Source: an uncultured delta proteobacterium (lineage in GTDB: Bacteria > Desulfobacterota > Binatia > UBA9968). From it: a stretch of 64,000 bases of DNA. The stretch's first letter is position 1, and every line of letters starts with the position of its first letter. The notes under the pieces are model-generated. The model made no database searches. It saw nothing but the letters and a program-made list of their open reading frames with translations, and was not told where the DNA came from. Below, in pieces: positions 49,274-63,778 of this stretch. Made by a program: the position numbers and the translations under genes. The stretch covers positions 192,001 to 256,000 of the forward strand of contig CAWJBB010000041.1 in assembly GCA_963840855.1 (NCBI GenBank), read 5' to 3'.

Positions 49274-50266
49274 CTAACTCAAGAGTAAGAACAGCTTGGT
49301 CGCAAGCCAGCCGATGGCGCCGCAGATCGGAAAAGTCAGGATCCAGGCGGCGACGATCTCGAGGGTTACGCCCCAGCGCACCGCGGATAAGCGCCGCGTT
49401 GCGCCCACGCCGATGATGGACGTGTTGATGGTGTGAGTCGTGCTCAAGGGAATGCCGAGGCGGGTGGCCAGCTCGATGGTCATGGCCGCGCTCGTCTCGG
49501 CGGCAAAGCCGTGCACGGGCTCCAGTTTGGTGAGGCGCAGCCCCATGGTCTTGACGATGCGCCAGCCGCCCACCGCGGTGCCAATGCCCATCGTGGCGGC
49601 GCACATTATGATGACCCAAATGGGCACGTTGAATTCCGGTATGATCCCACCCAAGAGGAGCGATAGCGTGAAAACGCCGATGAACTTCTGCCCATCGTTG
49701 GAGCCGTGGCTAAATGCCATGAATGCGGCGGAGACAATCTGTAATCGACCGAAAATCTTCCGCACCGTTCCGGGCCTGGTGTGGGCCAGGCTGCGGTAGA
49801 GCAAGCCCATCAGGAATAGGCCGCCAAAAAAACCCAAAAAGGTGGAGAACAACAGGCCGATGAGAACTTTGTTCCACCCGGTGGCAACCAGGCTCTCCGG
49901 TCCAGCCGTCGCAAGAGCCGCGCCGGTCAATCCGGCGATCAGGGCATGACTCTCGCTTGTCGGCATGCCGAAATACCACGCCAGAGTACTCCAGAAAATA
50001 ATCCCCACCATGGCTGCGCCCACCGTGGCCAGATTGATAATGTCGGGCCGAACTATGTCCTTGCCGATGGTGGCGGCCACAGCCGTGCCCGACATCGCGC
50101 CTAGCGCGTTTAGAATTGTCGCCATAATGACCGCCTGATAGGGCGACAGCACGCGCGTCGAGACCACCGTGGCGATGGCGTTGGGGGAGTCGGTCCAGCC
50201 GTTGACGAATTCAGCGGCCAGGATGAGTCCCAGGACAAAAATGAGCAGCCAGCTTGCGTCGAACAT
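49274..50266 (-). CDS. pit: PiT-family inorganic phosphate transporter
   Basis: NGWTDSPNAIATVVSTR, PTSESHAL, HGSNDGQK, GIPLSTTH. Confidence 0.93.
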   Translation of the reverse strand: MFDASWLLIFVLGLILAAEFVNGWTDSPNAIATVVSTRVLSPYQAVIMATILNALGAMSGTAVAATIGKDIVRPDIINLATVGAAMVGIIFWSTLAWYFGMPTSESHALIAGLTGAALATAGPESLVATGWNKVLIGLLFSTFLGFFGGLFLMGLLYRSLAHTRPGTVRKIFGRLQIVSAAFMAFSHGSNDGQKFIGVFTLSLLLGGIIPEFNVPIWVIIMCAATMGIGTAVGGWRIVKTMGLRLTKLEPVHGFAAETSAAMTIELATRLGIPLSTTHTINTSIIGVGATRRLSAVRWGVTLEIVAAWILTFPICGAIGWLATKLFLLLS

Positions 50267-50282: not shown

Positions 50283-50897
50283 TCAGGAATTTTTCAGGCC
50301 GATGCTTTCGAGGATATTGGCGACATCTTCGCAACGATCGGTGGCGGATTCGAGGATCTCATATATGTCGAGCCACTTGATGACCTCCATCGGCGAGGTG
50401 CCATCGCCGAAAAGGTTGCCGATGGCTTTACGGTAGATGTCGTCCGCGGCATTCTCCAGGCGGTTGATCTCGATGCAATACTCGTCGATGTCGTCCAGGC
50501 GCGGCATATGCGACACGGCCTTGACCAGTTGTTCAGTAGCCGTAACGATGAGATCGGACAACTCCAGGGCTTCCGCAGTGGGCCGTTCGATTTTGAACAG
50601 GACCATGCGCGACGCACCCGCCTCGATGGCGTCCATCACGTTATCCAACGCCGTCGTCAGCGCGTGAATATCTTCCGCGTCGATGGGGGTTAAAAAGGTC
50701 TGGTTCAGGCTCCGGATCGTCCGATGGGTGAGGCGGTCGCCTTCATGTTCAAGGTCTTTGAGCTTTTTCCACGACTCTTGCGGATTGTCATAGCGCTCAA
50801 ACATTTCCTTTAGGGCTTTGGCGCCGGCGAGGGCGTTTTCCGCGGACTGTTTGAAAAGGTCAAAAAATTTTTCCCGATGGGGGGAGAAATTAAACAT
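50283..50897 (-). CDS. DUF47 (PhoU-like Pit accessory) protein
   Basis: LEHEGD, TFLTPIDAEDI, LENAAD, ESATDRCEDVAN. Confidence 0.92.
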   Translation of the reverse strand: MFNFSPHREKFFDLFKQSAENALAGAKALKEMFERYDNPQESWKKLKDLEHEGDRLTHRTIRSLNQTFLTPIDAEDIHALTTALDNVMDAIEAGASRMVLFKIERPTAEALELSDLIVTATEQLVKAVSHMPRLDDIDEYCIEINRLENAADDIYRKAIGNLFGDGTSPMEVIKWLDIYEILESATDRCEDVANILESIGLKNS

Positions 50898-50962
50898 GGA
50901 ATCGAAGCCTCTATAAAAGGGGAGAGACTTTTACATAGCAGCTTGGAGAACTTGCCGCAAGC

Positions 50963-50991
50963 AATGTTAAGGAAATGTTACGGCAATGTTA
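50963..50991 (-). promoter_or_regulatory. Pho-box array upstream of DUF47-pit
   Basis: AATGTTA three times at 50963, 50974, 50985 (11-bp period). Confidence 0.78.
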
Positions 50992-53220
50992 CGAGCCCTC
51001 GTTGGCGAGGGCGATGAGCAACCGTTCGACCCGGGCGCGAATGGCGTCGCGGACGTCGCGGAAAACTTTGAGGATATGTTCCTCGTCGCCGTGCGCTAAC
51101 GCCGGGTCGGGCAAGGTCCAATGATCACGCCTCGCGTCTGCCGGAACAGCAGGGCAGGTCTCCGTCGCGTCGCCGCAAAGCGTGATGAGTAGATCGACGC
51201 TGTCAAGCGGGACTGCGTCTAATCCTTTTGAGCTTTGATTGGAAATATCGATGCCGGCTTCTTTCATCACCTCGACCGCCAGCGGATGGACCGGTTTTGG
51301 CTCCGTTCCCGCGCTGTAGATGCGGTGGCCGTTTACGGCCAGACGGCGCGCGAATCCTTCGGCCATCTGGCTGCGGCAAGAGTTGCCGGTGCAGAGGAAC
51401 AAAATATTTTTGTGATCTGTTTCTTGTTGGACCGCCGGCAATTGAACATGCACCGTGGTGCCCTTTTGCATGACGCTCTCGATCTTAAGTTTGCCCTGGT
51501 GCGCCTGAACGATGTGCTTGACGATGGCGAGACCTAAACCGGTTCCCCCCAGCTCGCGAGAGCGCGCCTTGTCGACGCGGTAAAATCTCTCGGTGAGCCT
51601 GGGAATATCATTTGCGGGGATGCCAGACCCGGTATCGCTCACCGATAATTGAACCATTAACGGCGCGCCAGGAGCGGCCGGCGTCTTCGCAGCTTTCAAC
51701 GCGACCTTGCCGCCAGAGGGCGTGTATTTGACCGCATTATCGATCAAATTGATGAACAGTTGCTGGAGCCGGTCGAAGTCGCCGAGCAGCGGCGGTAATC
51801 CGGGTTCTATTTGTTTGTTGAGTTCGAGATTTTTCGCATTTGCCTGGTTCCAGAAAACCTCCAGCACGCGCTGTGCTAGCTGGGCGATATCCACCGGTCG
51901 CCGCGCCAGCGGCAATTTTCCTGATTCCAAATCGGACAAGGTCAAAAGGTCTTCAGTCAGGCGGCTGAGCCGTTCGGTATTGCGCTCGATGACGCCGAGA
52001 AAATGGCGCATGTCGGCGGGATCCTCTGGCGGAGTTCGGAGCAGCGTTTCGACGTAACCGCGGATGGCGGTGAGTGGCGTGCGTAACTCGTGGGATACGT
52101 TGGCGACTAAGTCCGAACGCACCAACTCCAACCGCTTGATCTCGCTGATGTCGTGAAACACGAGGATCGAACCGCATGCCTCCTGGGCGCCGTCCTTTAG
52201 ACTTACGGCGTTGACGCTGACCCAGCGGCCCTCGTCCAGTTCGACTTCCTTGGAATAGCCCCGGTTGGCGAATTCGACTTCGAGCGCCTCACGCATGACC
52301 GCCAGCATTTCGGGGTGGCGGGAAAGCTCGGCGATGGAGGCGCCCTGGACGTCACGACCGGGTGGGACTTGAAACATCCGTTTCGCCTGCTCGTTGATGA
52401 CCAAAACCCGTCCTTTGGGGTCGAGCACCAGCACGCTCTCGATCATGCAGCGCAGGATCGAGTCCGCCTTTTCCTTTTCGGCGACGATTTGTTGAATGTG
52501 GTCCCGTAGCTTGCGACCCATCTCGTTAAGGTGCCGCTCCAGAAGATTGATTTCATCGCGTCCCGTGGTGGAGAAAAAATCATGGGGAATCGTGCCACCG
52601 GCGACCTGGCGCGAGAATTCCACCAGCCGCCCCAAGCGCCGGCCAAAATGGCGGAAAAAGACATAGGCAATCAGCAAGGCGAGGGCGGAGGCAGTGAGCA
52701 AACCCATTAACAAAGCGCGCCCCAGCGCGCTCGTCCGTTTTTCTATATCGGCCAGGGGAAAGGCAAGCCGGACGATTCTCTTTCGGCTTCCTTCGTTTTG
52801 AAGAATTGCGCGATAGAAGAGATCGTAGCCGACGGTGGTGCTGTGGCGTATCGCGGAGCCACTTCCCTTGGCCAGCGCATCGACGATTTCGGGCCGCCCG
52901 GCATGGTTCTCCATGGCTTCGGCAGGTTCGGCGGAATCGCCGAGCACTTGGCCGTCCAGGGCGATGATCGTTATGCGCGCGCCTAATTCGTCGGACAGGC
53001 TCCGGGTGAGGACATCTAGCGGGGCGCCCTCCAGTTCGAAGGGCAGAGCTTTGGCGAGCAGGCGCGATTCACGCTCCATGCGCGCCCCCAGCGAGGAGAT
53101 ATAAAGGTCTTTAACAAGCGCCTCTGAATAGAAGTAAAAGCTCGCGAACAGCAGCGCGATGATGGCGAGATAGCTAAGGAAGAACTTGAATATGAGGCTA
53201 CTGTTCCAGAGCCTTTTCAT
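50989..53220 (-). CDS. phoR: Phosphate sensor kinase PhoR with C-terminal arsenate reductase (ArsC/LMWP) domain
   Basis: 2 TM helices, [47 protein letters not shown]; then ILFLCTGNSCRSQMAEG...TLCGDATETCP...HWTLPDP. Confidence 0.92.
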   Translation of the reverse strand: MKRLWNSSLIFKFFLSYLAIIALLFASFYFYSEALVKDLYISSLGARMERESRLLAKALPFELEGAPLDVLTRSLSDELGARITIIALDGQVLGDSAEPAEAMENHAGRPEIVDALAKGSGSAIRHSTTVGYDLFYRAILQNEGSRKRIVRLAFPLADIEKRTSALGRALLMGLLTASALALLIAYVFFRHFGRRLGRLVEFSRQVAGGTIPHDFFSTTGRDEINLLERHLNEMGRKLRDHIQQIVAEKEKADSILRCMIESVLVLDPKGRVLVINEQAKRMFQVPPGRDVQGASIAELSRHPEMLAVMREALEVEFANRGYSKEVELDEGRWVSVNAVSLKDGAQEACGSILVFHDISEIKRLELVRSDLVANVSHELRTPLTAIRGYVETLLRTPPEDPADMRHFLGVIERNTERLSRLTEDLLTLSDLESGKLPLARRPVDIAQLAQRVLEVFWNQANAKNLELNKQIEPGLPPLLGDFDRLQQLFINLIDNAVKYTPSGGKVALKAAKTPAAPGAPLMVQLSVSDTGSGIPANDIPRLTERFYRVDKARSRELGGTGLGLAIVKHIVQAHQGKLKIESVMQKGTTVHVQLPAVQQETDHKNILFLCTGNSCRSQMAEGFARRLAVNGHRIYSAGTEPKPVHPLAVEVMKEAGIDISNQSSKGLDAVPLDSVDLLITLCGDATETCPAVPADARRDHWTLPDPALAHGDEEHILKVFRDVRDAIRARVERLLIALANEGS

Positions 53221-53911
53221 CGAATTTGTAGCCCACCCCTCGGAGGGTTAAAATCCATTTGGGATGGCTGTCGTCCTTTTCGATCGCCTTTCGCAAGCGC
53301 CGGATATGAACGTCGACGGTCCGGGGCGTCACGTAGGTCTCGCCACCCCAAACCCGGTCGAGCAGTTGGTCGCGGCTCAGCACCCGGTTGGGATTTTGCG
53401 CCAGAAAGCGCAATAGTTCAAACTCCTTGAGCGTTAGCTTGATGGTTTTTCCTCGGGCGAAAACCTCGTAGGTCGTGAAATCGATGCGCAGCGGCCCTTT
53501 TTCGTACGACGGCGGGCTATCCGCGGCGGCAGCGCTTTCTGACCTCCTGAGTATCGCGCGCACCCGCGCCACCATTTCACGCGGGCTGAAGGGTTTCGCC
53601 AGGTAGTCGTCTGCGCCCATCTCCAAGCCGATGACTTTGTCGGCCTCGCCAGCCTTGGCGGTGAGCATCAGGATCGGCAGGTGCGCCGTGTCTTGGCGGT
53701 CGCGCAAGAGCTTGCAAAGCTCCATTCCGGACATACCGGGAAGCATGAGATCGAGAATTATCAGATTCGGTCTGGCGCGCTGGAGTAGTTTTAGAGCTTG
53801 CTCGCTATCTTCGGCCTCGATCACTTTGTAGCGCTCTTGGACGAGATTGTATTGGAGGAGTTTGCGAATATCGGGCTCGTCTTCGACGACGAGAATCGTT
53901 GGATTGGCCAT
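53198..53911 (-). CDS. phoB: Phosphate regulon response regulator
   Basis: VEDE, LDLMLP, GADDY.AKPFS, RTVDVHIRRLR; located between phoU and phoR. Confidence 0.92.
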   Translation of the reverse strand: MANPTILVVEDEPDIRKLLQYNLVQERYKVIEAEDSEQALKLLQRARPNLIILDLMLPGMSGMELCKLLRDRQDTAHLPILMLTAKAGEADKVIGLEMGADDYLAKPFSPREMVARVRAILRRSESAAAADSPPSYEKGPLRIDFTTYEVFARGKTIKLTLKEFELLRFLAQNPNRVLSRDQLLDRVWGGETYVTPRTVDVHIRRLRKAIEKDDSHPKWILTLRGVGYKFDEKALEQ

Positions 53912-53920
53912 ATGTGAAAA

Positions 53921-54613
53921 CTAAACGGTGGGCGGAAGCTCCTTGAGATGGCGAATGCTTTTACCCTTGACCATGAAAATGACCATTTCGGCGATATTCG
54001 TCGCGTGATCGGCGATGCGCTCGAGGTACTTCGAGATCGAGCTGATCTTGATCGCCCGGTTGATGGTGTGCGGGTCGTCGATCATGAAGGTCACCACTTC
54101 GCGAAAGATCTGACTGTTCAATTGATCGACCTCTTCGTCGTCCTTGCAGACTTTGAGCGCCAGATCGGTGTCCTCGCGCACGAAAGCATCGAGGCTCTCG
54201 CGTATCATCCGCTGCGCTACGCGCGCCATGCGCGGGATGTCGATGTAGGGTTTCAACTGCGGTTCCTGGTTCAGCTCCAGGGCGCGCTCGCAGATATTCA
54301 CCGCCATATCGCCGATACGCTCGAGATCGGTCGTAATCTTGAGTCCGGTGGTGATGAATCGGAGATCCCGTCCGGCCGGTTGATGCAAAGCCAGAAGGCG
54401 GACACATATATCGTCAATATCGACGTCGAGACGGTTCACTTCGTGATCCCGCTCGATAATCAGTTCGGCCAGCTTCGAATCCCGCTCGACCAGAGACTTG
54501 ATCGACTTCTGAATCTGGTCTTCGACCATCCCGCCCATGTAGAGGATCTCTTCCCGAAGCTTCTTAAGTTCTTCTTCGTATCTTTTATCGGTATGTTCCA
54601 TTGACGTGGACAT
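53921..54613 (-). CDS. phoU: Phosphate signalling protein PhoU
   Basis: QPAGRDLR, DLERIGD, LERIADHATNIAE. Confidence 0.96.
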   Translation of the reverse strand: MSTSMEHTDKRYEEELKKLREEILYMGGMVEDQIQKSIKSLVERDSKLAELIIERDHEVNRLDVDIDDICVRLLALHQPAGRDLRFITTGLKITTDLERIGDMAVNICERALELNQEPQLKPYIDIPRMARVAQRMIRESLDAFVREDTDLALKVCKDDEEVDQLNSQIFREVVTFMIDDPHTINRAIKISSISKYLERIADHATNIAEMVIFMVKGKSIRHLKELPPTV

Positions 54614-54624
54614 GAGGTTTCTCC

Positions 54625-55476
54625 TTAACCGAAACGACCGGTGATGTAGTCTTCGGTTTGGCGCTTCTCCGGCGCGGTGAAAAGGGTTCCGGTCTCTCCG
54701 AATTCTATCAATTCGCCGAGATAGAAAAAAGCCGTATAGTCCGAGACCCGGGCGGCCTGCTGCATGTTATGGGTCACGATGACGATGGTGAAAGTGTTCT
54801 TGAGTTCATGGATCAATTCTTCGATCTTGGCGGTGGAAATCGGGTCGAGGGCGGAACAGGGCTCGTCCATGAGCAATACTTCGGGTTCAACGGCAAGAGC
54901 CCGGGCAATACAAAGGCGCTGCTGCTGCCCGCCGGACAAATCAACCGCGCTCTTGTGCAGGTTGTCTTTGACCTCGTCCCATATGGCGGCGCGGCGCAAG
55001 TTCTTTTCGACGACTTCGTCGAGGTAGCTTCGGTTATTCACGCCGACGATGCGCAATCCATAAACGATGTTCTCGTAGATACTCTTGGGGAAGGGGTTCC
55101 ATTTCTGAAAAATCATGCCGACGCGGCGGCGCAGATTGATGACATCCATGGACGGGTCGTAGATGTTTTTGCCGTCAAGGTTGATACTGCCGGTAACGCG
55201 GGTATTGAGCACGAGATCGTTCATGCGATTCAGGCAGCGCAGCAGGGTGGTCTTACCGCAACCGGAGGGACCGATGAAGGCGGTCGATTTCTTCTCGCCA
55301 ATCTCCAAATTGATGGATTTTAGCGCATGCTTCTCGCCATAGTAAAAATCGACGTTTTCAACGCTGAAAATATTCCTAACCGGCTCGCCGACTTTGGTTT
55401 TGATGACCGACGTGTCCATGGGTTTAATAGAAGGCCGGCTTGCAATGACGTCTGCCGCTGATTCGTGTACGCTCAT
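54625..55476 (-). CDS. pstB: Phosphate ABC transporter ATPase
   Basis: [45 protein letters not shown]. Confidence 0.96.
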
Positions 55477-55518
55477 CTTACCTCCATTAGGTATATTTGT
55501 CATTGGAGATCCTTGGCG

Positions 55519-56443
55519 CTACCATTTGATGCGTTTTCGGAAACGATAGCGGAAATAGATCGCGATACCGTTCATCACCAAGGTCATAACCATCAGCACC
55601 AAGCCCGTGGCCGCCGCGTTGAGGTGGAATTCGGCTTGGGGCCGCGAAACCCAGTTAAACATTTGAATTGGCATAACTGAAAATGGCGACCACAGCCATT
55701 CAAAAGAGATAAAAGGAAACTCGGCTTTGATCGGAGCGTCGGGCAGGAATGCGATAAAAGTAAGGGCGCCGATGGTGATCAGCGGCGCGGTTTCCCCGAT
55801 GGCGCGCGAGAAGCCCGATAATGACGCCGGTCAAGATGCCGCCCATCGAATAGGGCAACACATGATCGCTGGTGGTTTGCCATTTGGTCGCGCCGAGGGC
55901 GTAAGCTGCTTCTCTCATGCTGCCGGGAACGGCGCGGATGGATTCGCGGGTGGCGACGATGACGATCGGCAAAATCAGCAGCGCCAAGCGTGAGCCCCGC
56001 TGAGAGCACGCTCTGTCCGAATCTGAACTGATAAACAAACAATCCCAGTGCCATCAAGCCGTAAACAATGGACGGCACGCCCGCCAGGTTGGCGATATTG
56101 ATTTCGATGATCGCGGTGAACCAGTTTTTCGGAGCGTATTCCTCCAGGTAAACGCCGGCGCCGACGCCGATTGGAATAGCCGCCAGGGCGGTCACGATCA
56201 TGACGAGAATCGTGCCCACCCAGGAGGAGAGAATGCCCGCTTGGCCGGCAAAACGGGACGGAAACGACGTAAAGAAATGCGGCTGCAGACGCGCCAGCCC
56301 GTCGATGGCGAGGTCAGAAAGCAAGGTGGCCAAGGTGAGCATACCGATGAGGGTCGAGATCAAGCCGACACGGCAAATAGCTTGTCCCGATTCTTATTGC
56401 CGGCGACGCTTTTTTCAATGTCGGATGGAGACGGCTTCTGCAT
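55519..56443 (-). CDS. pstA: Phosphate ABC transporter permease PstA (several frameshifts)
   Basis: [29 protein letters not shown] across frames. Confidence 0.88.
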
Positions 56444-56444
56444 A

Positions 56445-57401
56445 TCAGTAAATCTCCCTGAAGCGCTTTCGAAGCAAGTAACCGCCGATGTTGAAAATCA
56501 GAGTCATGCACATCAAGGTCAAACCCGCGGCAAAAATACTTTGATAGGCGATGCTGCCGTGGGGCAAATCGCCCAAGCTCACTTGCACGATATAGGCAGT
56601 GATCGTCGCGGCGCCTTCCATCGGATTCAGCGTCAGATTGGGCTGGGTGCCGGCAGCGAGGGCAACCACCATGGTTTCGCCGACCGCCCGGGAGAACCCC
56701 AGCACGTAGGCGGAGGCGATGCCGGAAAATGCCGCGGGCACCAGCACGCGAAGCGCCGTCTGCAGCCGCGTCGCGCCCATGGCATAGGAGCCTTCGCGAA
56801 TATGCACCGGGACGGCCTTCATCGCGTCTTCGCTGAGCGAGCTGACATAGGGATGATCATGATGCCGATGACGATGCCGGCGCTCAGCATGTTGAAGCCC
56901 GGCAGATTCGGGCATACAGACTCTGAAGCAGAGGCGTGATGCAACAGCAGCGCAAAATAGCCGAAAACAACCGTCGGCACAGCGCTCAACAGCTCTAGGA
57001 TCGGTTTCAATACTTCACGAACCGTGGTGTTGGCGTATTCACTCAAATAGATGGCAATGGTAGTTCCCAGCGGCAACGCCACCAGCAGAGCGATCGCCCG
57101 AGGTCACAAGGGTGCCAGTCACCAACGGCAAGATGCCATAGCGCGGGTTCTCGAACAGAACCGTCCACTGCGTGTCGGTGAGAAAATCAATGATCGATAC
57201 GTTCTCAAAAAAATGCCAGGACTCAGAGATCAAGAACCCAGACGATGCCCAGCGGTAATCGCGACTGAGAAAACGAGCACAGAGGAACATGCAACACTCG
57301 ATGACTCGCTCGCGAATCTTTTGGAGAGTTAGCCCGGAGCCACGGGCTTTGACTTGGCTTTGTAAAGCGACATAAGCAGCGTCGGCTTGATTTGTCTTCA
57401 C
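56445..57401 (-). CDS. pstC: Phosphate ABC transporter permease PstC (several frameshifts)
   Basis: [41 protein letters not shown] across frames. Confidence 0.88.
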
Positions 57402-57501
57402 ATCGTCTTTTCCTCTCTGACCTGATGTGGATCGGAGCGCTCGGCGGAAACGCGAGACGGGGCGCCGGAGTGCGCCCCGTCGCGTCGATCATTGACACCA
57501 G

Positions 57502-58493
57502 CTAGAGTTTCGGCTCTCGCTTCAGAAGTCTTCGATGGTGACTCCGACTTCCGCGCTTGCCGCCGAATGCCGTTCCGACTTTGCCGCTTTTTCACGTGAC
57601 TCGCGCCCAAGCGTATAGGCTTTATCTGCGGTAGCGGCACGTATTTGACTTCCCTGACCAGCTTCGGAGCGTGCTTGAGATAGTACTCCACAAACTCTTT
57701 AACCTCTGGCTTTGCCAAGGACTTCTTGCTCACATAAATATAGATCGGCCGGGAAAGCGGTTGATAAGTGCCATCGAGCACAGTCTTTTCCGACGGGCCG
57801 ACGGGACCTTTGCCGTTATCGATCGCGACGGCTTTGAGCTTACCCTTGTTCTCAGCATAGTAGGCGAAGCCGAAAAATCCCAAGGCATTGTGGTCGTTCG
57901 CAACGCCTTGAACCAGGACGTTATCATCCTCGCTCGCCGTAAAATCGCCGCGGCTGGATTTCGCTTTCCCAGCGATGGCTTCGGTGAAGTAGTCAAAGGT
58001 TCCGGAGTCGGCTCCGGCGCCGAAGAGCTTCAACGGGCGTCGGGCCAACTGGCTCGAACTTGATTCCATTTAGTGACTTTCCCCTGCGCGGCGGGCTCCC
58101 ACATTTTCTTGAGTTCAGCCACGGTCAGAGATTGAGGACCACTCGTTTTTGGGGTTGACGATTACGGTGAGGGCATCGAAAGCGACCGGCAGTTCGATGT
58201 ATTCAATGCCGGCGCCTTTGCACGCCTCCATCTCCTGTTTCAAGATGGGCCGAGATGCGTTGCTGATATCGGTTTCGCCGCGGCAGAATTTCTTAAAGCC
58301 GCCGCCCGTACCCGCGATACCCACGGTTACCTTGATCTTGCCCTTCTTCGCTTTCTGGAACTCTTCGGCAACGGCCTCGGTGACCGGAAACACCGTGCTC
58401 GAACCGTCGATTTGAATCAATTTGCGCCTGGGCAGCTCGCTCGACAAACACGAAAAGACCGAGCAGGCTGAGAATTAACAATATTTTCTTCAT
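57502..58493 (-). CDS. pstS: Phosphate-binding protein PstS (several frameshifts)
   Basis: Signal peptide; [40 protein letters not shown]. Confidence 0.9.
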
Positions 58494-58526
58494 AGTTTCC
58501 TCCTGTTATGAGCTTTAGCGATCTAT

Positions 58527-58840: not shown

Positions 58841-59575
58841 ATGGCCGGCGGCATGAAAATGTACGGCAAGCATCGCTTCCCGGGAAGACTTTTTATCGTC
58901 GAGGGCATCGACGGGTCAGGCAAGAGCACGCAGCTGATGCTGCTGCAAAAATGGCTCGAGTCCGAGGGCTATGTCGTTTACTTCAGCGAATGGAATTCCT
59001 CCCCCCTCGTCCGCGACGTCACCAAGCGCGGCAAGAAAAAGCAGATGCTCACGCCGATGACTTTCAGTCTGATCCACGCCACCGATTTTGCCGACCGCAC
59101 CGAACACGATATCATTCCGCCCCTCAAGGCGGGCGCGGTGGTCTTGGCGGACCGCTATATTTATACCGCCTTCGCCCGCGACGTCGTGCGTGGGGTCAGT
59201 CCCAGTTGGGTGAGAGGGCTGTACGATTTCGCGGTTAAGCCCACCGTGTCGTTCTATTTCCGCGCGCCCTTAGACGTGGCGATGAAGCGGATTCTCGGTG
59301 GGCGGGACGCGATCAAGTATTACGAAGCCGGAATGGATCTCGGACTGAGCGACGACATCGAAGAGTGTTTCGAGCTTTTTCAAGGTAAGATCATCGAGGA
59401 ATATGAAAAAATGGTCGATGAGTTCGGCCTAGTGCCCATCGACGCGACGCGTTCCATTGAAGAGCAGCAAGCCGAAGTGAGACGGATCGTGATGCAGGCG
59501 CTGGAAGGTACCAAGAAAACGAGGATTCGCAAATGGCTCGATTTGGCTTCTTTGGCGAAGGACTCCCGGGCATAG
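58841..59575 (+). CDS. Thymidylate-kinase-fold P-loop kinase, subunit A
   Basis: VEGIDGSGKST, LADRY; EWNSS where canonical Tmk has REPG. Confidence 0.85.
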   Translation: MAGGMKMYGKHRFPGRLFIVEGIDGSGKSTQLMLLQKWLESEGYVVYFSEWNSSPLVRDVTKRGKKKQMLTPMTFSLIHATDFADRTEHDIIPPLKAGAVVLADRYIYTAFARDVVRGVSPSWVRGLYDFAVKPTVSFYFRAPLDVAMKRILGGRDAIKYYEAGMDLGLSDDIEECFELFQGKIIEEYEKMVDEFGLVPIDATRSIEEQQAEVRRIVMQALEGTKKTRIRKWLDLASLAKDSRA

Positions 59576-60234
59576 ACCTCGAAGAGCTGAAAGGAAAGCT
59601 CATCGTCCTCGAGGGAACCGACGGGGTGGGGCGGTCGACGCATATCGGCTTATTAAAACAGTGGCTGGAGAACAACGGCCACGCCGTGTTGGACACCGGC
59701 ATGACCCGCTCCCCTTTGGCCGGCAAGCGGCTCAAACAGGCGAAGGAAGGCCACACTCTGGGCGGCATCACGATGAGCCTGTTTTACGCCACCGATTTCG
59801 CCGACCGTCTGGAAAACGAAATCATCCCCGCGTTGCGGGCGGGTTTCATCGTGCTTACGGACCGTTATATTTATTCCCTGATGGCCCGCGCCGTCGTGCG
59901 CGGGGCCGACCCGGAGTGGTTGCGCGAAGTCTACGGTTTCGCGCTCAAGCCGGATGCGATTTTTTATTTGCGCGTCAATATCGACGATCTGGTGACCAGG
60001 GTTTTGCAAAGCACGGGGTTCAATTACTGGGAGTCCGGCATGGATCTCCGTATGGGCGAGGACTTGTACGAGAGCTTCGTGCGTTACCAGCGCTGGCTGC
60101 TCGGCGAGTTCGACAAGATGGTGGAAACCTACGGCTTCGACATCGTCGACGCTTCGGGCACCGTCGAGGAGGTGTTTCCGCGCCTGCGCGACCGTATCCA
60201 GAGGATCGTCGAACGCAACGGCCATGCGCAATGA
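59533..60234 (+). CDS. Thymidylate-kinase-fold protein, subunit B (P-loop Lys replaced by Arg)
   Basis: LEGTDGVGRST, LTDRY, YWESGMDL; overlaps subunit A by 43 bp. Confidence 0.85.
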   Translation: MARFGFFGEGLPGIDLEELKGKLIVLEGTDGVGRSTHIGLLKQWLENNGHAVLDTGMTRSPLAGKRLKQAKEGHTLGGITMSLFYATDFADRLENEIIPALRAGFIVLTDRYIYSLMARAVVRGADPEWLREVYGFALKPDAIFYLRVNIDDLVTRVLQSTGFNYWESGMDLRMGEDLYESFVRYQRWLLGEFDKMVETYGFDIVDASGTVEEVFPRLRDRIQRIVERNGHAQ

Positions 60235-60237
60235 TTC

Positions 60238-61206
60238 TTAGTCTTGCCCCACCGCTTCCACCGGATTTTCATCCCCCGCGATTGTGAATTCGGTTTCACC
60301 GAACGCGCGCGAGGTTTTTTCCGCGTGTTTCACCAGGCCGTCGATGCTGGCATTGGCGCGGCGCTGTTCACGCTCCATTTCCACGAGCAACGCCCGCGCC
60401 AGGCCAGGATGGGTGGCTAAGAAATCTTTTCGGCTCAGAAACTCCGCGCAGGTGTCCAAGAGAACCTGGCGGTCGTGCCACGAGCCTAATTGATCCTGCA
60501 GCAAGCGCAAGGATTTCACCCGCGCTTTTGCTGGCCCGTCGCCTAACTCGGCGAGAAGCTCGACCCGGTAGCGCAGCCGCTTGCCGGCGATGCGCAGCGC
60601 GTGCACTTCCTTCGGCTCTGGCCGCGCTTTGGCCGTGGCGATGGCATCCCGCCAATCGGCCAGCGCCCCGGCCACGCTCTTTTTCAGGCTGTCCTCCAGC
60701 GCTTCAGCGCCGCTGTCAATTAGGACGCGCGCGCGGTCGGCGAAGTTCACGAGGTCGAAGCCGCGGAGCTTTTCCCGGCTGCGCTCGACGGCACGGGCGC
60801 GCCGGTTCCCGAGCTGGGCTCGCAGCTGGTCCCAGGCATCCCGCACCACGGGATTACTGGCAGCAGCGATTTTTTCTTGCACCAGTTCGGTCATGACATC
60901 CAGATTGCGCGGCCGACCCAGGATCTTGCGGATACTGCGCAACGCGCGCATGAGCTTGCGCGGCTTATTTTTTTTCGTGGATTGCGACGCGAGCATGCTG
61001 AGAATCTGCTGCAAGCGCCGGCTCCATACCCGCACATCGTGAATCATTTTAGCATCGTCGGTCACAATGACACGGGGCATGAGAGCGGCGAATTTTTCCA
61101 GCCGTTTGCGGCCCAACGCGGATAATTTCCCGTTCGTCGCGGTTGGCGGCGGGTCCGCTGAGTTTGCTTCGTCTGTTGTTGAGTTCGGGGAAGTCGCGGC
61201 ATTCAT
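60238..61206 (-). CDS. CHAD domain (polyphosphate-binding) protein
   Basis: IHDVRVWSRRL, LGRPRNLDV, HALRIAGKRLRY, LQDQLGSWHD. Confidence 0.9.
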   Translation of the reverse strand: MNAATSPNSTTDEANSADPPPTATNGKLSALGRKRLEKFAALMPRVIVTDDAKMIHDVRVWSRRLQQILSMLASQSTKKNKPRKLMRALRSIRKILGRPRNLDVMTELVQEKIAAASNPVVRDAWDQLRAQLGNRRARAVERSREKLRGFDLVNFADRARVLIDSGAEALEDSLKKSVAGALADWRDAIATAKARPEPKEVHALRIAGKRLRYRVELLAELGDGPAKARVKSLRLLQDQLGSWHDRQVLLDTCAEFLSRKDFLATHPGLARALLVEMEREQRRANASIDGLVKHAEKTSRAFGETEFTIAGDENPVEAVGQD

Positions 61207-61211
61207 AAAGG

Positions 61212-61730
61212 TCACGATTTGGCGCCGCGTGTGCCCAGGAAACGGAGCTGTTTCGGCGCCAGCAAGGCGCGGAGCGTCCCAGGACTGCGGGGTGGCAAGG
61301 AATCGATCTCGATGTGGCAAAGACCGCCCTTTTTGAGAGCGATCTCGAGGGCGACCGTTTTCTTGCCCGTGACAAGGAAAGCCGCGGTGCCGCTTAGCAA
61401 CGGCTCATGTCCCACAAGTAGCAGGTGCTTGCAGTGTTGGTAGTCGCTCAGGCTGGCGAGCAATTCCTCCACCGAGCAGTTCGGTTGGAGCCCCTCCACC
61501 ACCGTCAATTGGGATTCTAGACCCAGCGCCTCGGCGACGATGTCGGCGGTCTGGCGCGCCCGCGCTAGGGGACTCGTCAAAATGGCGTCGAAGTCGAGGC
61601 CGAGACGGCGCAAGCCGCGCACCGCCTTGCGCATTCTTTTAGTACCTTTTGCCGTGAGCGGCCGCTCGCCGTCCGGTGCCGTTTCTTCGGCACTTACCGC
61701 GATGCCGTGACGCAAGAGATATATGTTCAT
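61212..61730 (-). CDS. sixA: Phosphohistidine phosphatase SixA
   Basis: YLLRHG, RPLT, TSPLARARQTA, LVGHEP. Confidence 0.9.
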   Translation of the reverse strand: MNIYLLRHGIAVSAEETAPDGERPLTAKGTKRMRKAVRGLRRLGLDFDAILTSPLARARQTADIVAEALGLESQLTVVEGLQPNCSVEELLASLSDYQHCKHLLLVGHEPLLSGTAAFLVTGKKTVALEIALKKGGLCHIEIDSLPPRSPGTLRALLAPKQLRFLGTRGAKS

Positions 61731-61772
61731 GGTTCGTCTTACCCGGCGCGGTGGTGGCACCCCAGACGCGGA

Positions 61773-62213
61773 TCAGGTGAGGTTGCGCCAGTAGTCCATA
61801 AACAAAGCGAACACTCTCTTGTTAATTTCATCACGTTCTTCGCGCAGGGTCGATAGGCCGGCCAAATCATTGTTTTGTGCCGCCCTGGAACTCGCAATGG
61901 CCCATTGTTTCACCTTGGCTCTGGCTGGCAGGGTGGCGCATTTCTTGTCAGCGCCGGCGAAGCTTACGATCAGGTCGATTTCATCTAACGGCACCTGGTC
62001 AACGCTTTTGGAATTTTGCGTCGACATGTTGATGCCGAGCTCTTGCATGACTTTGCGCACGGGCACGGGAATGTTGCCGGGGGTGACGCCGGCGCTGAAG
62101 ACGCGCACTTTGGGTGGCCCCAAGTGCTTCGCCACCGCTTCAGCCATCTGGCTCAAACGGGCGTTGTCCTGGTCCAGAAATAAGACGTTTCTCTGGCGAA
62201 TCTCGCGGCGCAT
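61773..62213 (-). CDS. ArsC/LMW-PTP-fold protein lacking the catalytic CX5R motif
   Basis: VLFLDQDNARLSQMAEA, FSAG, MQELGI...QNSKS, RDEI. Confidence 0.82.
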   Translation of the reverse strand: MRREIRQRNVLFLDQDNARLSQMAEAVAKHLGPPKVRVFSAGVTPGNIPVPVRKVMQELGINMSTQNSKSVDQVPLDEIDLIVSFAGADKKCATLPARAKVKQWAIASSRAAQNNDLAGLSTLREERDEINKRVFALFMDYWRNLT

Positions 62214-62230
62214 GGAATACCTCCTGTGAA

Positions 62231-63778
62231 TTACCGAGTTGCGCTGTTTTTGGACTTTTCAAAAGCAACGTCGATATTAAAAACTTCCTGCATCAAGCTA
62301 GCCTTTTTCGCCGCCCGTTGGAAGTGTTCTTTGAGATTGGCCGCGGCGGAGGCGGCGATGATCAGCTCCTTCGAGTTTTTCTGCGCGCAGCTTACCGCTT
62401 TAACCGTTTGGTCATGGGTGAAATCCAGAGAGTCGGCGACGCGCAGAATAGCGCTCAGCTTGCGTACGATCTGTTGTTGATCGGGATGCAACTGGCTGAA
62501 GGCCAGGTGTTTTTGGCTCGGATGCGCTTTGCGGTGATAGCGCGCGACATTGGCGATGAGATCGAGATCAGTTCTGCTGAAGGAATTCATCGCCGAGCTT
62601 TTGATCAGGTAGTATGAATGCTTGTGGTGCTTGGGGTAGGCGACGAATAAGCCGATGTCGTGCAGGGTGGCCGCCGCATGCAGGACACTCGCGAATTTTT
62701 CCGGCAACTGGTGCAGGTCGTGGAGTTGATAGAAGAGATTTAACGCGAGCTGGCTCACGTGCTCGGCGTGAGCGCGGTCATAGAGGTATTTCTGGCACAC
62801 CTGTTCGAGGGACTCAGCCCGCTCCGCCCCGGCGTGCCAGGGTTCGGCGGCCGAATAATGGCGCTGCAACAAGTCCACCATCAGGCCGTCGCGCAGACCG
62901 CGTCGGCTAACGAAGAGGTAATCCAGTCCGGCTGCCGTCATGATTTCATGGAGCACCAATCCACCGGCAACGATGATGTCGGCGCGCCTGGGATCGCCGC
63001 TGATCATCGACGCGCGTTCAGAGGCGGGCAAGCCTTTCAATAATTCAAGCAAAGCTTTAAGCCGCGACCGGCGCAGGATGGCAAGTGAATCGGGTTTCGT
63101 GTCGCCGCCGACCAGGGTATCGGTTTCGGCCAGAGCGGTAACCGTTCCGCCGCTGCCAAACGCCATGGTGAATTTTTCTTTTTCAATGCGGCGCACCACC
63201 GGCTTGAGTTTTTCCTGAACCAGCTCGCGTAAATTCTTGATCTCGCGGTTGCGCGGCGGGTCGGTGGCGAGAAAGGCTTCGGTCAAGCGCACCGCCCCGA
63301 GGGGCAGGCTGAACAGGCAAAAGAGCGTACTGGTATTGGCCACGGAAAACTCGACGCTGCCGCCGCCAATGTCGAGGAAGAGCCCCAGGGGCAAATGAAA
63401 ACGCAACCCGCTCATGATGCCGAGACTGATGAGACGGGCTTCGTCTTCTTCCGAAATCACGTCCAGTGGGATGCCGGACTTGCGCGCGCGGCGAACGAAA
63501 GCTTTGCCGTCGCGCGCTTCACGCAGGGCGCTGGTGCCTACGGCGCGAACGGATTTCACGCGGTAGCGGTCGGCCAACGCGCGAAAATCACCGAGAACTT
63601 TTAGTGCGGCATCGGCGGTGCGGGGATCGAGTTTCCCAGTGCGGAAAACATCATGGCCCAATCGCACGGGCTGGCGTTCCTGCTCCAGAACTCGATATTG
63701 CTTCGGATGGTCGACGGCGGCAATCTGCAGACGCATCGCGTTACTGCCGACGTCAACGACGGCGAAATGGTCCGGCAT
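62231..63778 (-). CDS. ppx: Ppx/GppA exopolyphosphatase with HD domain
   Basis: VDVGSNAMR, GTSALREA, EEDEARL, DIGGGSVE, GLRDG, LHDIG, HHKHSYY, ARYHRK. Confidence 0.93.
   Translation of the reverse strand: MPDHFAVVDVGSNAMRLQIAAVDHPKQYRVLEQERQPVRLGHDVFRTGKLDPRTADAALKVLGDFRALADRYRVKSVRAVGTSALREARDGKAFVRRARKSGIPLDVISEEDEARLISLGIMSGLRFHLPLGLFLDIGGGSVEFSVANTSTLFCLFSLPLGAVRLTEAFLATDPPRNREIKNLRELVQEKLKPVVRRIEKEKFTMAFGSGGTVTALAETDTLVGGDTKPDSLAILRRSRLKALLELLKGLPASERASMISGDPRRADIIVAGGLVLHEIMTAAGLDYLFVSRRGLRDGLMVDLLQRHYSAAEPWHAGAERAESLEQVCQKYLYDRAHAEHVSQLALNLFYQLHDLHQLPEKFASVLHAAATLHDIGLFVAYPKHHKHSYYLIKSSAMNSFSRTDLDLIANVARYHRKAHPSQKHLAFSQLHPDQQQIVRKLSAILRVADSLDFTHDQTVKAVSCAQKNSKELIIAASAAANLKEHFQRAAKKASLMQEVFNIDVAFEKSKNSATR

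Follow-up and report, generated by a model that had tools for sequence, protein, structure and literature searches.

The thioredoxin-type arsenate reductases (ArsC) of Bacillus subtilis and of Staphylococcus aureus pI258 are free proteins of ~14 kDa. PhoBR, the two-component system of the phosphate regulon, controls arsenite oxidation. According to the available text of two sources, phosphate genes lie in arsenic islands (bioRxiv 10.1101/870428), and arsenate enters cells via phosphate transporters (PMC6205960). The fusions of ArsC described in the available text of the latter source are those to Acr3 (Mycobacterium tuberculosis), to an aquaglyceroporin (Salinispora tropica), to ArsR and to ArsN (PMC6205960). 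Here, a gene is described in which ArsC forms the C-terminal domain of a PhoR sensor kinase. The gene is located at 50989..53220 on the reverse strand of a 64-kb stretch of contig CAWJBB010000041.1 (the window), which belongs to a metagenomic assembly of an uncultured delta proteobacterium (G000, 94% complete). The phoR::arsC fusion is confirmed to be real and not an assembly artefact.

Domain organization and authenticity of the fusion

The fusion gene is a single open reading frame (ORF) that starts with ATG and encodes 743 amino acids followed by a stop codon. Its translation reads ...VHVQLPAVQQETDHKNILFLCTGNSCRSQMAEG...ITLCGDATETCP...HWTLPDP..., and Pfam matches place the domains, from the N- to the C-terminus, in the order sCache-HAMP-PAS-HisKA-HATPase_c, 11-residue linker, and LMWPc. 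The periplasmic sCache_like domain (residues 39-147, 52780..53106, reverse strand, as are all domains of the gene; PF16736, 42.3 bits) is flanked by long helices that an AlphaFold2 model predicts at residues 8-58 and 156-207. The sCache region (~residues 45-200 of the query) is missing in some PhoR orthologues, both fused and unfused (L022 of G007, L029 of G016, L122 of G449, L124 of G440, and L128 of G450). The HAMP match (residues 190-240) scores 21.7 bits, below the 25-bit Pfam cut-off. The cytoplasmic part of the kinase consists of a PAS domain (residues 254-358, 52147..52461; PF00989, 37 bits), a HisKA or DHp domain (residues 368-434, 51919..52119; PF00512, 76.8 bits), and a HATPase_c or CA domain (residues 480-596, 51433..51783; PF02518, 101.3 bits). 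The phospho-acceptor His377 is invariant across the 105 full-length sequences, 56–96% identical to the query, of a conservation set formed by the fusion protein and 120 homologues (n = 121). The linker (residues 597-605, 51406..51432), constant in length and variable in sequence, leads into the thioredoxin-type ArsC domain (residues 606-735, 51016..51405; PF01451), which contains C610, R616, C682, C689, and D705. A first-pass annotation of the window, made from the letters of the DNA, had placed this domain at ~50989-51411, in agreement with the Pfam limits. It had also read the gene as one in-frame ORF with the ArsC motifs, C-X6-C included, and the translation and an alignment to the B. subtilis structure 1JL3 bear this out.

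The kinase is identified as PhoR because its neighbours on the same strand are pstB, phoU, and the gene of a PhoB-type regulator. Among NCBIfam models, it scores highest on PnpS and phoR_proteo, but its scores remain below the cut-offs for PnpS (364.3 vs 400), phoR_proteo (303.9 vs 334.2), and PhoR of Bacteroidota (224 vs 500).

The DNA between the end of HATPase_c and the P-loop of ArsC contains no stop codon, and no ATG or GTG start and no Shine-Dalgarno-like run is apparent there, just as the annotation had stated for stop, separate start, and ribosome-binding site. A check of the sequence around ~51420, which the annotation had proposed, was made with Logan contigs from four soil or permafrost runs of four studies, aligned to positions 50900-58500. 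Contigs of three studies, which derive from relatives ~96–97% identical to the window rather than from reads of the source sample itself, bridge the junction with zero gaps (X1 record 1, 51092-51817; X5 record 8, 50931-52105; and X8 record 15, 50931-53912). The fused architecture is also found in protein databases. Residues 590-743 match 471 kinase-length proteins in a 5.8-billion-protein collection (subjects of 408-1301 amino acids, E ≤ 1e-3), and PF01451, PF00512, and PF02518 occur together in all of the best 120 of these 471 matches. The HisKA-HATPase_c-LMWPc architecture, which the annotation had left to a domain search, thus exists beyond the window, and its range is one bacterial family. 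In a library of 1.84 billion representatives searched with the ArsC domain, only one kinase-length protein (P0014, 740 amino acids) is among the best 150 matches, the remainder being stand-alone, tandem, or short forms of ArsC, which indicates that the kinase-ArsC architecture is essentially one protein family.

Indels do occur near the gene, in pstSCA of the window assembly, and the match of SelB in this assembly falls into two frames, so that a false join of two genes, by misassembly or frameshift, had to be considered. However, three independent contigs are gap-free at the junction, and 24 of the 41 genomes of the family, as well as all of the best 120 database proteins, have the same fused frame, which leaves this explanation with a negligible probability. 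Two suspected split-gene forms were rejected: the supposed internal TGA of G010 is the terminal stop, and the separate arsC frame of G453 is due to a run of N at the junction.

The LMWPc match of the C-terminal domain scores 82.1 bits against a cut-off of 23.2 (E 5.9e-23). In a search of solved structures, the last 143 residues align to residues 2-132 of B. subtilis ArsC (1JL3) with an E-value of 9.8e-39 and without gaps, and C610, R616, C682, C689, and D705 therefore correspond to Cys10, Arg16, Cys82, Cys89, and Asp105. The CX5R P-loop is C610-T-G-N-S-C-R616, C682 and C689 align to the Cys82/Cys89 disulfide-relay pair, and D705 aligns to the general acid Asp105. The domain alone scores 162.4 bits in TIGR02691, the model of thioredoxin-type ArsC, which is below the equivalog cut-off of 174.3. 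The acr3-linked ArsC of a relative scores 135.5, indicating that the cut-off excludes the operon ArsC of the same bacterial family too. Among the 121 sequences, Cys10 is kept in 116, Arg16 in 117, Cys82 in 120, Cys89 in 118, and Asp105 in 119. The complete five-residue set is intact in 110 and has at least one substitution in 11, so the claim of a full thioredoxin-type catalytic set stands, and the set is under selection. Lysine at ArsC position 65, which is aspartate in B. subtilis and S. aureus, was considered as a peculiarity of the fused family and rejected, because stand-alone relatives have lysine too.

The LMWPc fold and the CX5R P-loop are common to phosphatases, and the domain might serve as a reversible gauge of inorganic phosphate or as a phosphatase of a phosphoprotein (PhoB~P, PhoR~P, or another) rather than as a reductase. 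The presence of SixA and of a catalytically dead LMWPc protein of the same lineage in the phosphate island of the window, described below, is consistent with such a role, since LMWPc-type proteins seem to have been recruited to phosphate biology. However, the phosphatase matches are weak (24.2 bits in NF008486 vs a cut-off of 247, and E 1.8e-6 for the phosphatase structure YwlE vs 9.8e-39 for ArsC), and the stretch CTGNSCRSQMAEG is common to the fused domain and the aligned ArsC structures. Furthermore, Cys82 and Cys89 serve, in established ArsC chemistry, no purpose other than the disulfide cascade and recycling by thioredoxin, and their conservation is not explained by binding or hydrolysis alone. 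The retention of the full catalytic set, including these two cysteines, argues for a redox-active arsenate reductase and not for a passive phosphate binder or phosphatase; a non-reductase role is improbable. The first-pass annotation had offered three roles for the domain, oxyanion sensor, redox sensor, or detoxifier, and the passive phosphate binding implied by the first of them agrees only poorly with this conservation.

Conservation, distribution, and history of the module

The fused ArsC domain is conserved as well as the CA domain of the kinase. The mean column identity in the 105 full-length sequences is 0.75 for ArsC and 0.79 for CA, and the values for DHp, PAS, sCache, and the linker are 0.87, 0.70, 0.66, and 0.31, respectively. 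Catalytic residues are substituted in eight full-length variants, which are scattered and do not form a single lineage. The ratio of ArsC to kinase conservation is 0.914 in these variants and 0.956 in the other sequences (Mann-Whitney p 0.019, uncorrected and ignoring kinship), and a lower ratio is expected if the value of the domain lies in catalysis. The fused copy of G007 has C-X5-C spacing.

The distribution of the fusion was determined with residues 480-743 as a query, a match spanning both halves being counted as a fusion. The counts derive from metagenome-assembled genomes (MAGs) that are 60–100% complete, in which related genomes are non-independent samples and truncated contigs are scored by their match ranges. 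In an even sample of the phylum, the fusion is present in 1 of 401 genomes at E ≤ 1e-65, namely G000, and none of the other 400 has it. It is found in 0 of 16 genomes of two sister families of the same order. Among the 41 genomes of the window's own family, 24 are fused (G000, G001, G005, G006, G007, G009, G010, G011, G013, G014, G018, G021, G023, G440, G441, G443, G445, G446, G447, G449, G450, G453, G455, and G457; the loci of G006, G446, and G457 are truncated, and that of G453 has the run of N), 12 are unfused (G004, G008, G012, G015, G016, G017, G019, G020, G022, G448, G451, and G454), and the state of five is not assignable (G024, G442, G444, G452, and G456). G009 and G015 are unpublished genomes, used only in these counts and in those of Acr3 below; without them, 23 fused and 11 unfused genomes of 39 remain. 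G002, from the scan that also covered the sister families and not one of these 41, is likewise fused. Among named sequences, the closest come from MAGs that carry the labels Candidatus Binatia, Binatota, and Binataceae, with a few Deltaproteobacteria, Zixibacteria, and Verrucomicrobiae. The fusion is thus confined to one bacterial family, which agrees with the earlier statement that the architecture is not canonical for PhoR, the module being missing even in 12 of the 41 family members. A motif scan of genome contigs (NSCRSQMA and GGTGLGLAI), which provided organism names and outgroup ArsCs, recovered generic kinases and stand-alone ArsCs; the fused form is absent among the 80 loci listed from it, and the patterns are too unselective for this to bear on the range of the fusion.

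The gene order pstSCAB-phoU-phoB-phoR is identical in fused and unfused loci (30 related loci), and unfused PhoRs terminate 6-31 unconserved residues past the CA domain. Both states occur within each of the genera g1, g9, g17, and g279. A maximum-likelihood tree of the kinase core (residues 201-598, 34 rows, three sister-family outgroups; quick search with support from the Shimodaira-Hasegawa-like approximate likelihood ratio test (SH-aLRT) only, G453 scored as unfused) tracks the genus codes, and fused and unfused kinases are interleaved in it. The label is no more clustered on this tree than in shuffles. Parsimony requires 11 changes between the two states, at least six of which are forced by well-supported branches. 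In a tree of 56 ArsC-type domains (quick search, SH-aLRT without bootstraps), a split with 96% support separates all fused domains and four catalytically dead stand-alone paralogues from all 31 remaining stand-alone ArsCs, including the acr3-linked ArsCs of the same family, which are 53–58% identical to the fused domain. By their sequences, the fused ArsCs are a lineage distinct from these acr3-linked ones. A clade of the 20 rows labelled as fused is not rejected by the approximately unbiased test (p 0.21); the fused domain of G007, counted as stand-alone in this labelling, lies inside the fused group. The simplest history is a single gain of a complete ArsC at the C-terminus of the PhoR of the pstSCAB-phoU-phoB-phoR operon, in the ancestor of the family, followed by repeated clean deletions, the direction being inferred. 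The module would have been lost cleanly at least ~6 times, with the operon frame retained, and may be an accessory, niche-dependent part that lineages can delete without harm to PhoR.

Repeated loss would also be expected of a neutral leftover, created when a stop codon between phoR and a downstream arsC was lost and now decaying. Degenerate copies exist, such as that of G455, which is without Cys82, Cys89, and Asp105, and the 11 sequences with substitutions belong here as well. However, a decaying domain is difficult to reconcile with an ArsC that is conserved like the CA domain across proteins only 56–96% identical and that keeps its five catalytic residues in 110 of 121 sequences. The arrangement from which such a fusion would arise, phoR followed by a separate co-directional arsC, was seen in 0 of the 12 unfused loci examined. 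A neutral origin of this kind is very improbable.

Possible function of the tethered reductase

The interpretation tentatively preferred, at a confidence that falls somewhat short of even, is that of an active, kinase-tethered arsenate reductase produced together with the Pho/Pst system. Its enzymatic activity, co-transcription with the pst and pho genes, timing, and the fate of arsenite are inferred. When the Pho system is switched on, phosphate transporters would admit arsenate, and the tethered ArsC would be made from the same transcript. Held by the kinase at the inner face of the membrane, the enzyme would reduce As(V) to As(III) and thereby remove the phosphate mimic. Cys610 would attack arsenate in the CX5R P-loop, the Cys682/Cys689 disulfide cascade would follow, and thioredoxin would reset the enzyme.

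The kinase itself shows no adaptation to the module. In a comparison of the cores of 21 fused and 10 unfused kinases of the family (398 columns, seven sister pairs), no signature separates the two groups. Only one of the 398 columns, E556 (E/D), combines a conservation of 85% or more in fused kinases with one of 50% or less in unfused kinases, and the three columns that change in at least four of the seven sister pairs have conservative exchanges (K/R, I/V, and E/D). Conservation in fused and unfused kinases is near equal (0.82 and 0.83 for DHp, 0.73 and 0.74 for CA). The linker, variable in sequence, is modelled as flexible: in the AlphaFold2 model of the full-length protein, the single domains are predicted with confidence (mean predicted local distance difference test (pLDDT) of 79.3), but the predicted template modelling score is 0.37, and pLDDT falls below 50 at residues 600-602. 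A prediction of the complex of two DHp-CA cores (residues 360-599) with ArsC (residues 600-743), run with alignments, gave a score of 0.00 and a mark of 0.32 and bears neither way on docking. Nothing in these comparisons gives a positive sign that the module signals to the kinase. The absence of co-adaptation, the variable and flexible linker, and the frequent clean loss of the module favour a domain that acts on its own.

Arsenate-handling genes are present at the phoR end in three different forms. Besides the fusion, two unfused lineages carry, between bamE and phoR, pairs of genes convergent to phoR that lie within ~30 nucleotides (nt) of its stop codon: Acr3 and ArsC in G008 (L146:748-2309), and a MIP-family channel and ArsC in G451 (L131:1774-3109). 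The link between the locus and arsenate handling thus recurs, which supports the tethered enzyme. The known fusions of ArsC to membrane proteins and regulators provide a precedent for it.

The fused domain is encoded in a pst-pho operon, unlike a typical ArsC, the gene of which lies beside that of an arsenite exporter in an ars operon. Several observations weigh against a tethered detoxifying enzyme. G000 has no match of Acr3 and none of ArsB, and two further candidates for arsenite handling in this genome were rejected: the matches of ArsA are only short and at the level of the P-loop, and the sole MIP-family channel, with unrelated neighbours, scores as aquaporin Z (410 bits) and not as an aquaglyceroporin through which As(III) could exit. 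The two other LMWPc paralogues of G000 have degenerate P-loops, so that the fused domain is the sole intact LMWPc-type ArsC found in it. Acr3 matches at E ≤ 1e-10 are present in 15 of 24 fused and 5 of 12 unfused genomes, counts that include the fragments under the cut-off in G010, G018, G450, and G004. Nine of the 24 fused genomes are without an Acr3 match, including G011, G021, and G449, which are 98% complete, and ArsB was found in 1 of 41 family genomes. Acr3 usually adjoins an ArsC of its own (G004, G005, G008, G012, G013, G014, and G019). The fused genomes G005, G013, and G014 carry such a separate arsC-acr3 pair, and the fused copy is therefore unneeded for classical resistance there. 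Sensor kinases are usually scarce, which would limit bulk detoxification. The constant length of the linker could mean that the geometry of ArsC relative to the kinase matters: 11 residues separate LP595 from L607 in 106 of 121 sequences, and 9-12 in all 121. The weakest point of the proposal is that production of As(III) without an exit looks harmful, and a candidate selenocysteine-containing ArsM-like protein is no more than a possible sink for it.

The gene of the ArsM-like methyltransferase lies outside the window (L147:1360-2235, reverse strand, on G000:C69) and scores 205 bits in NF008823 against a cut-off of 263. It contains an in-frame TGA in the context '...DLWAA-U-IGGAL...', at a position where ArsM presumably has an arsenic-binding cysteine, and a GC-rich hairpin of 8 bp begins 11 nt further downstream. 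The protein is possibly a selenocysteine enzyme that could act as a pump-free sink for As(III). An ORF of the ArsC/Spx family (PF03960), located ~26 kb before the window (L120:1441-1809, reverse strand, corresponding to G000:C41:165537-165845), reads N-U-T-T-C-R-K-A if its TGA encodes selenocysteine, which would form a UxxC redox motif. On G000:C1 (L155/L156), the model of SelB is matched over its full length, but in two adjacent frames, a further sign of assembly indels.

A second interpretation, in which ArsC is catalytic and reports cytoplasmic arsenate to PhoR, is kept alive by the lack of an exit for As(III), by the constant length of the linker, and by the nature of the partner. Turnover would leave a Cys682-Cys689 disulfide, and the altered shape of the domain would change the engagement of CA with DHp, through the tether or between protomers. 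Lower kinase or higher phosphatase activity would then reduce the expression of Pst and Pit while arsenate enters, until thioredoxin resets the domain. Such a redox switch requires the same complete catalytic set as is conserved, and oxidized thioredoxin-type ArsC undergoes a large conformational change, which favours it. The presence of the module in genomes without a recognized arsenite exit, and beside separate arsC-acr3 pairs, fits a non-classical role, and the linker is nearly invariant in length, not in sequence. Its partner is a sensor kinase, unlike the transporter partners of the channel and pump fusions described in the available text on them. The dead LMWPc paralogue in the phosphate island could have arisen from this signalling function as an inactive derivative. 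However, no core position tracks the module over at least six independent transitions, DHp and CA are equally conserved with and without it, and the model contains no fixed arrangement of ArsC and kinase. In addition, the fused orthologue of G014 (L023:9150-9283) tolerates a linker of ~44 residues instead of the usual 11, and loss of the module is frequent. The arsenate-triggered switch, the main rival of the tethered enzyme, is the less likely of the two. With regard to the roles offered at first, the evidence leans, through the unchanged core, the flexible linker, and the clean loss, to the tethered enzyme.

The phosphate locus and comparison with known systems

The gene of the PhoB-type response regulator (53198..53911, reverse strand; Response_reg and Trans_reg_C) overlaps the start of the kinase gene by 23 nt at its end, and its product scores 270.2 bits in the PhoB model TIGR02154, against a cut-off of 296.2. 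It is preceded on the same strand by phoU (53921..54613; PF01895, two stretches, 167.9 bits) and by the gene of the ABC ATPase PstB (54625..55503; PF00005), the position of which is conserved in relatives. The genes pstA, pstC, and pstS (55700..58447, reverse strand) are each frameshifted in the window assembly and appear as fragmentary ORFs in a three-frame reading, with indels relative to the contigs. Contigs of three studies agree against the window in 12 listed indels of 1-2 nt at 56849-57627 and in an 87-to-81 nt replacement at 57404-57492. The explanation is either decay of Pst in this strain or poor assembly of the stretch. The ~6 kb from pstB through pit are intact, unlike the frameshifted pstA, pstC, and pstS.

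A DUF47/PhoU_div gene (50283..50897, reverse strand; PF01865, 80.7 bits) lies 91 nt downstream of the fusion gene and is followed by the gene of a PHO4/Pit-family phosphate transporter (49274..50266, reverse strand; PF01384, 301.4 bits). In the locus frame of the family, recR, bamE, and a variable slot are followed by the 3' end of phoR. The slot contains DUF47-pit in 8 of the 21 fused loci examined, and the link to Pit implied by the first-pass annotation is accordingly weaker than the window alone suggests.

A conserved-looking cluster upstream of the pst operon (60238-63778, reverse strand) consists of ppx (Ppx-GppA), the dead LMWPc gene, sixA, and a CHAD gene. The stand-alone LMWPc paralogue (61773..62213, reverse strand), placed between ppx and sixA, has lost the equivalents of Cys10, Arg16, Cys82, and Asp105, its P-loop reading D-Q-D-N-A-R-L, and belongs to the fused-domain side of the ArsC tree. 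Its counterparts are found in G011 (L019:16679-17074), G016 (L140), and G024 (L139). It seems to be a non-catalytic offshoot of the fused-ArsC lineage that was recruited to phosphate or polyphosphate genes, a placement for which long-branch effects are possible. The phosphohistidine phosphatase SixA scores 102.6 bits in TIGR00249 (cut-off 74.5), and the CHAD and sixA ORFs as called overlap by ~109 nt. Two tandem, overlapping thymidylate-kinase-like genes (58841-60234, forward strand) are located between CHAD and pstS, and a pair of the same kind occupies the same place in G002, G007, and G022.

The kinase-ArsC fusion is apparently undescribed. A search of full-text literature, judged by titles and the starts of abstracts, returned no published kinase-ArsC fusion. 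The word 'kinase' is absent from the main text of PMC6205960, and the ArsC fusions described there include none with a kinase partner. A preprint on Binatota (10.1101/2020.09.14.296780) contains 'arsenate' once, in its reference list, and 'PhoR', 'phosphate', and 'two-component' are absent from its main text. Fused proteins are present in public databases under automatic names such as 'PhoR', 'thioredoxin type arsenate reductase', and 'ATP-binding protein'.

Uptake of arsenate via phosphate transporters is greatest under phosphate scarcity, with the Pho regulon induced. Should the module be a tethered enzyme and nothing more, the fusion would provide co-expression and membrane placement, and the kinase would be a new kind of partner for a readily fusing domain. 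If feedback on the kinase were true, it would represent a new principle of sensing and a compact part for arsenate-responsive circuits. A redox switch would make the protein the first sensor kinase to distinguish arsenate from phosphate chemically, with an enzyme as the input domain. A disulfide ~11 residues from the CA domain would then bias the kinase off or towards phosphatase activity, and phosphate transporters would be shut exactly while they import arsenate. The close genomes with and without the module are natural controls.

The ArsC of B. subtilis and of S. aureus pI258 (1JL3, 1LJL, and 2CD7) belongs to the same fold family as the fused domain, to which it aligns gap-free over ~131 residues (E ~1e-38 to 1e-33), and has the same CX5R P-loop, Cys82/Cys89 pair, and Asp105. 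In contrast to the free protein, the predicted enzyme of the window is the C-terminal domain of a membrane sensor kinase and is encoded in a non-ars operon. The fusions of ArsC to Acr3 and aquaglyceroporin, as far as the available text describes them, resemble the proposed arrangement in that an enzyme is tethered at the membrane within one polypeptide. However, the partner in the fusions described there is a component of arsenic resistance (an exporter, a channel, or a repressor), whereas here it is the sensor kinase of the phosphate regulon. Kinases of the PhoR, PnpS, and WalK types (NF046044, TIGR02966, and NF033092) have the same domain order and invariant histidine, and the phoB-phoU-pstSCAB operon; they do not have a C-terminal enzyme domain, and the fusion protein scores below their equivalog cut-offs. 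Hybrid histidine kinases, like the protein described here, have an extra domain after HATPase_c. Their extra domain is a receiver or HPt, whereas here it is an oxidoreductase, and the 743-residue protein has no Response_reg match in Pfam. In the cross-talk between Pho and arsenic systems and in arsenic islands, the link is between separate genes and regulators, and the coordination of phosphate and arsenate is so far known as loose cross-regulation. In the fusion described here, the link is covalent and lies inside the sensor, so that the predicted reductase is hard-wired into the phosphate sensor itself.

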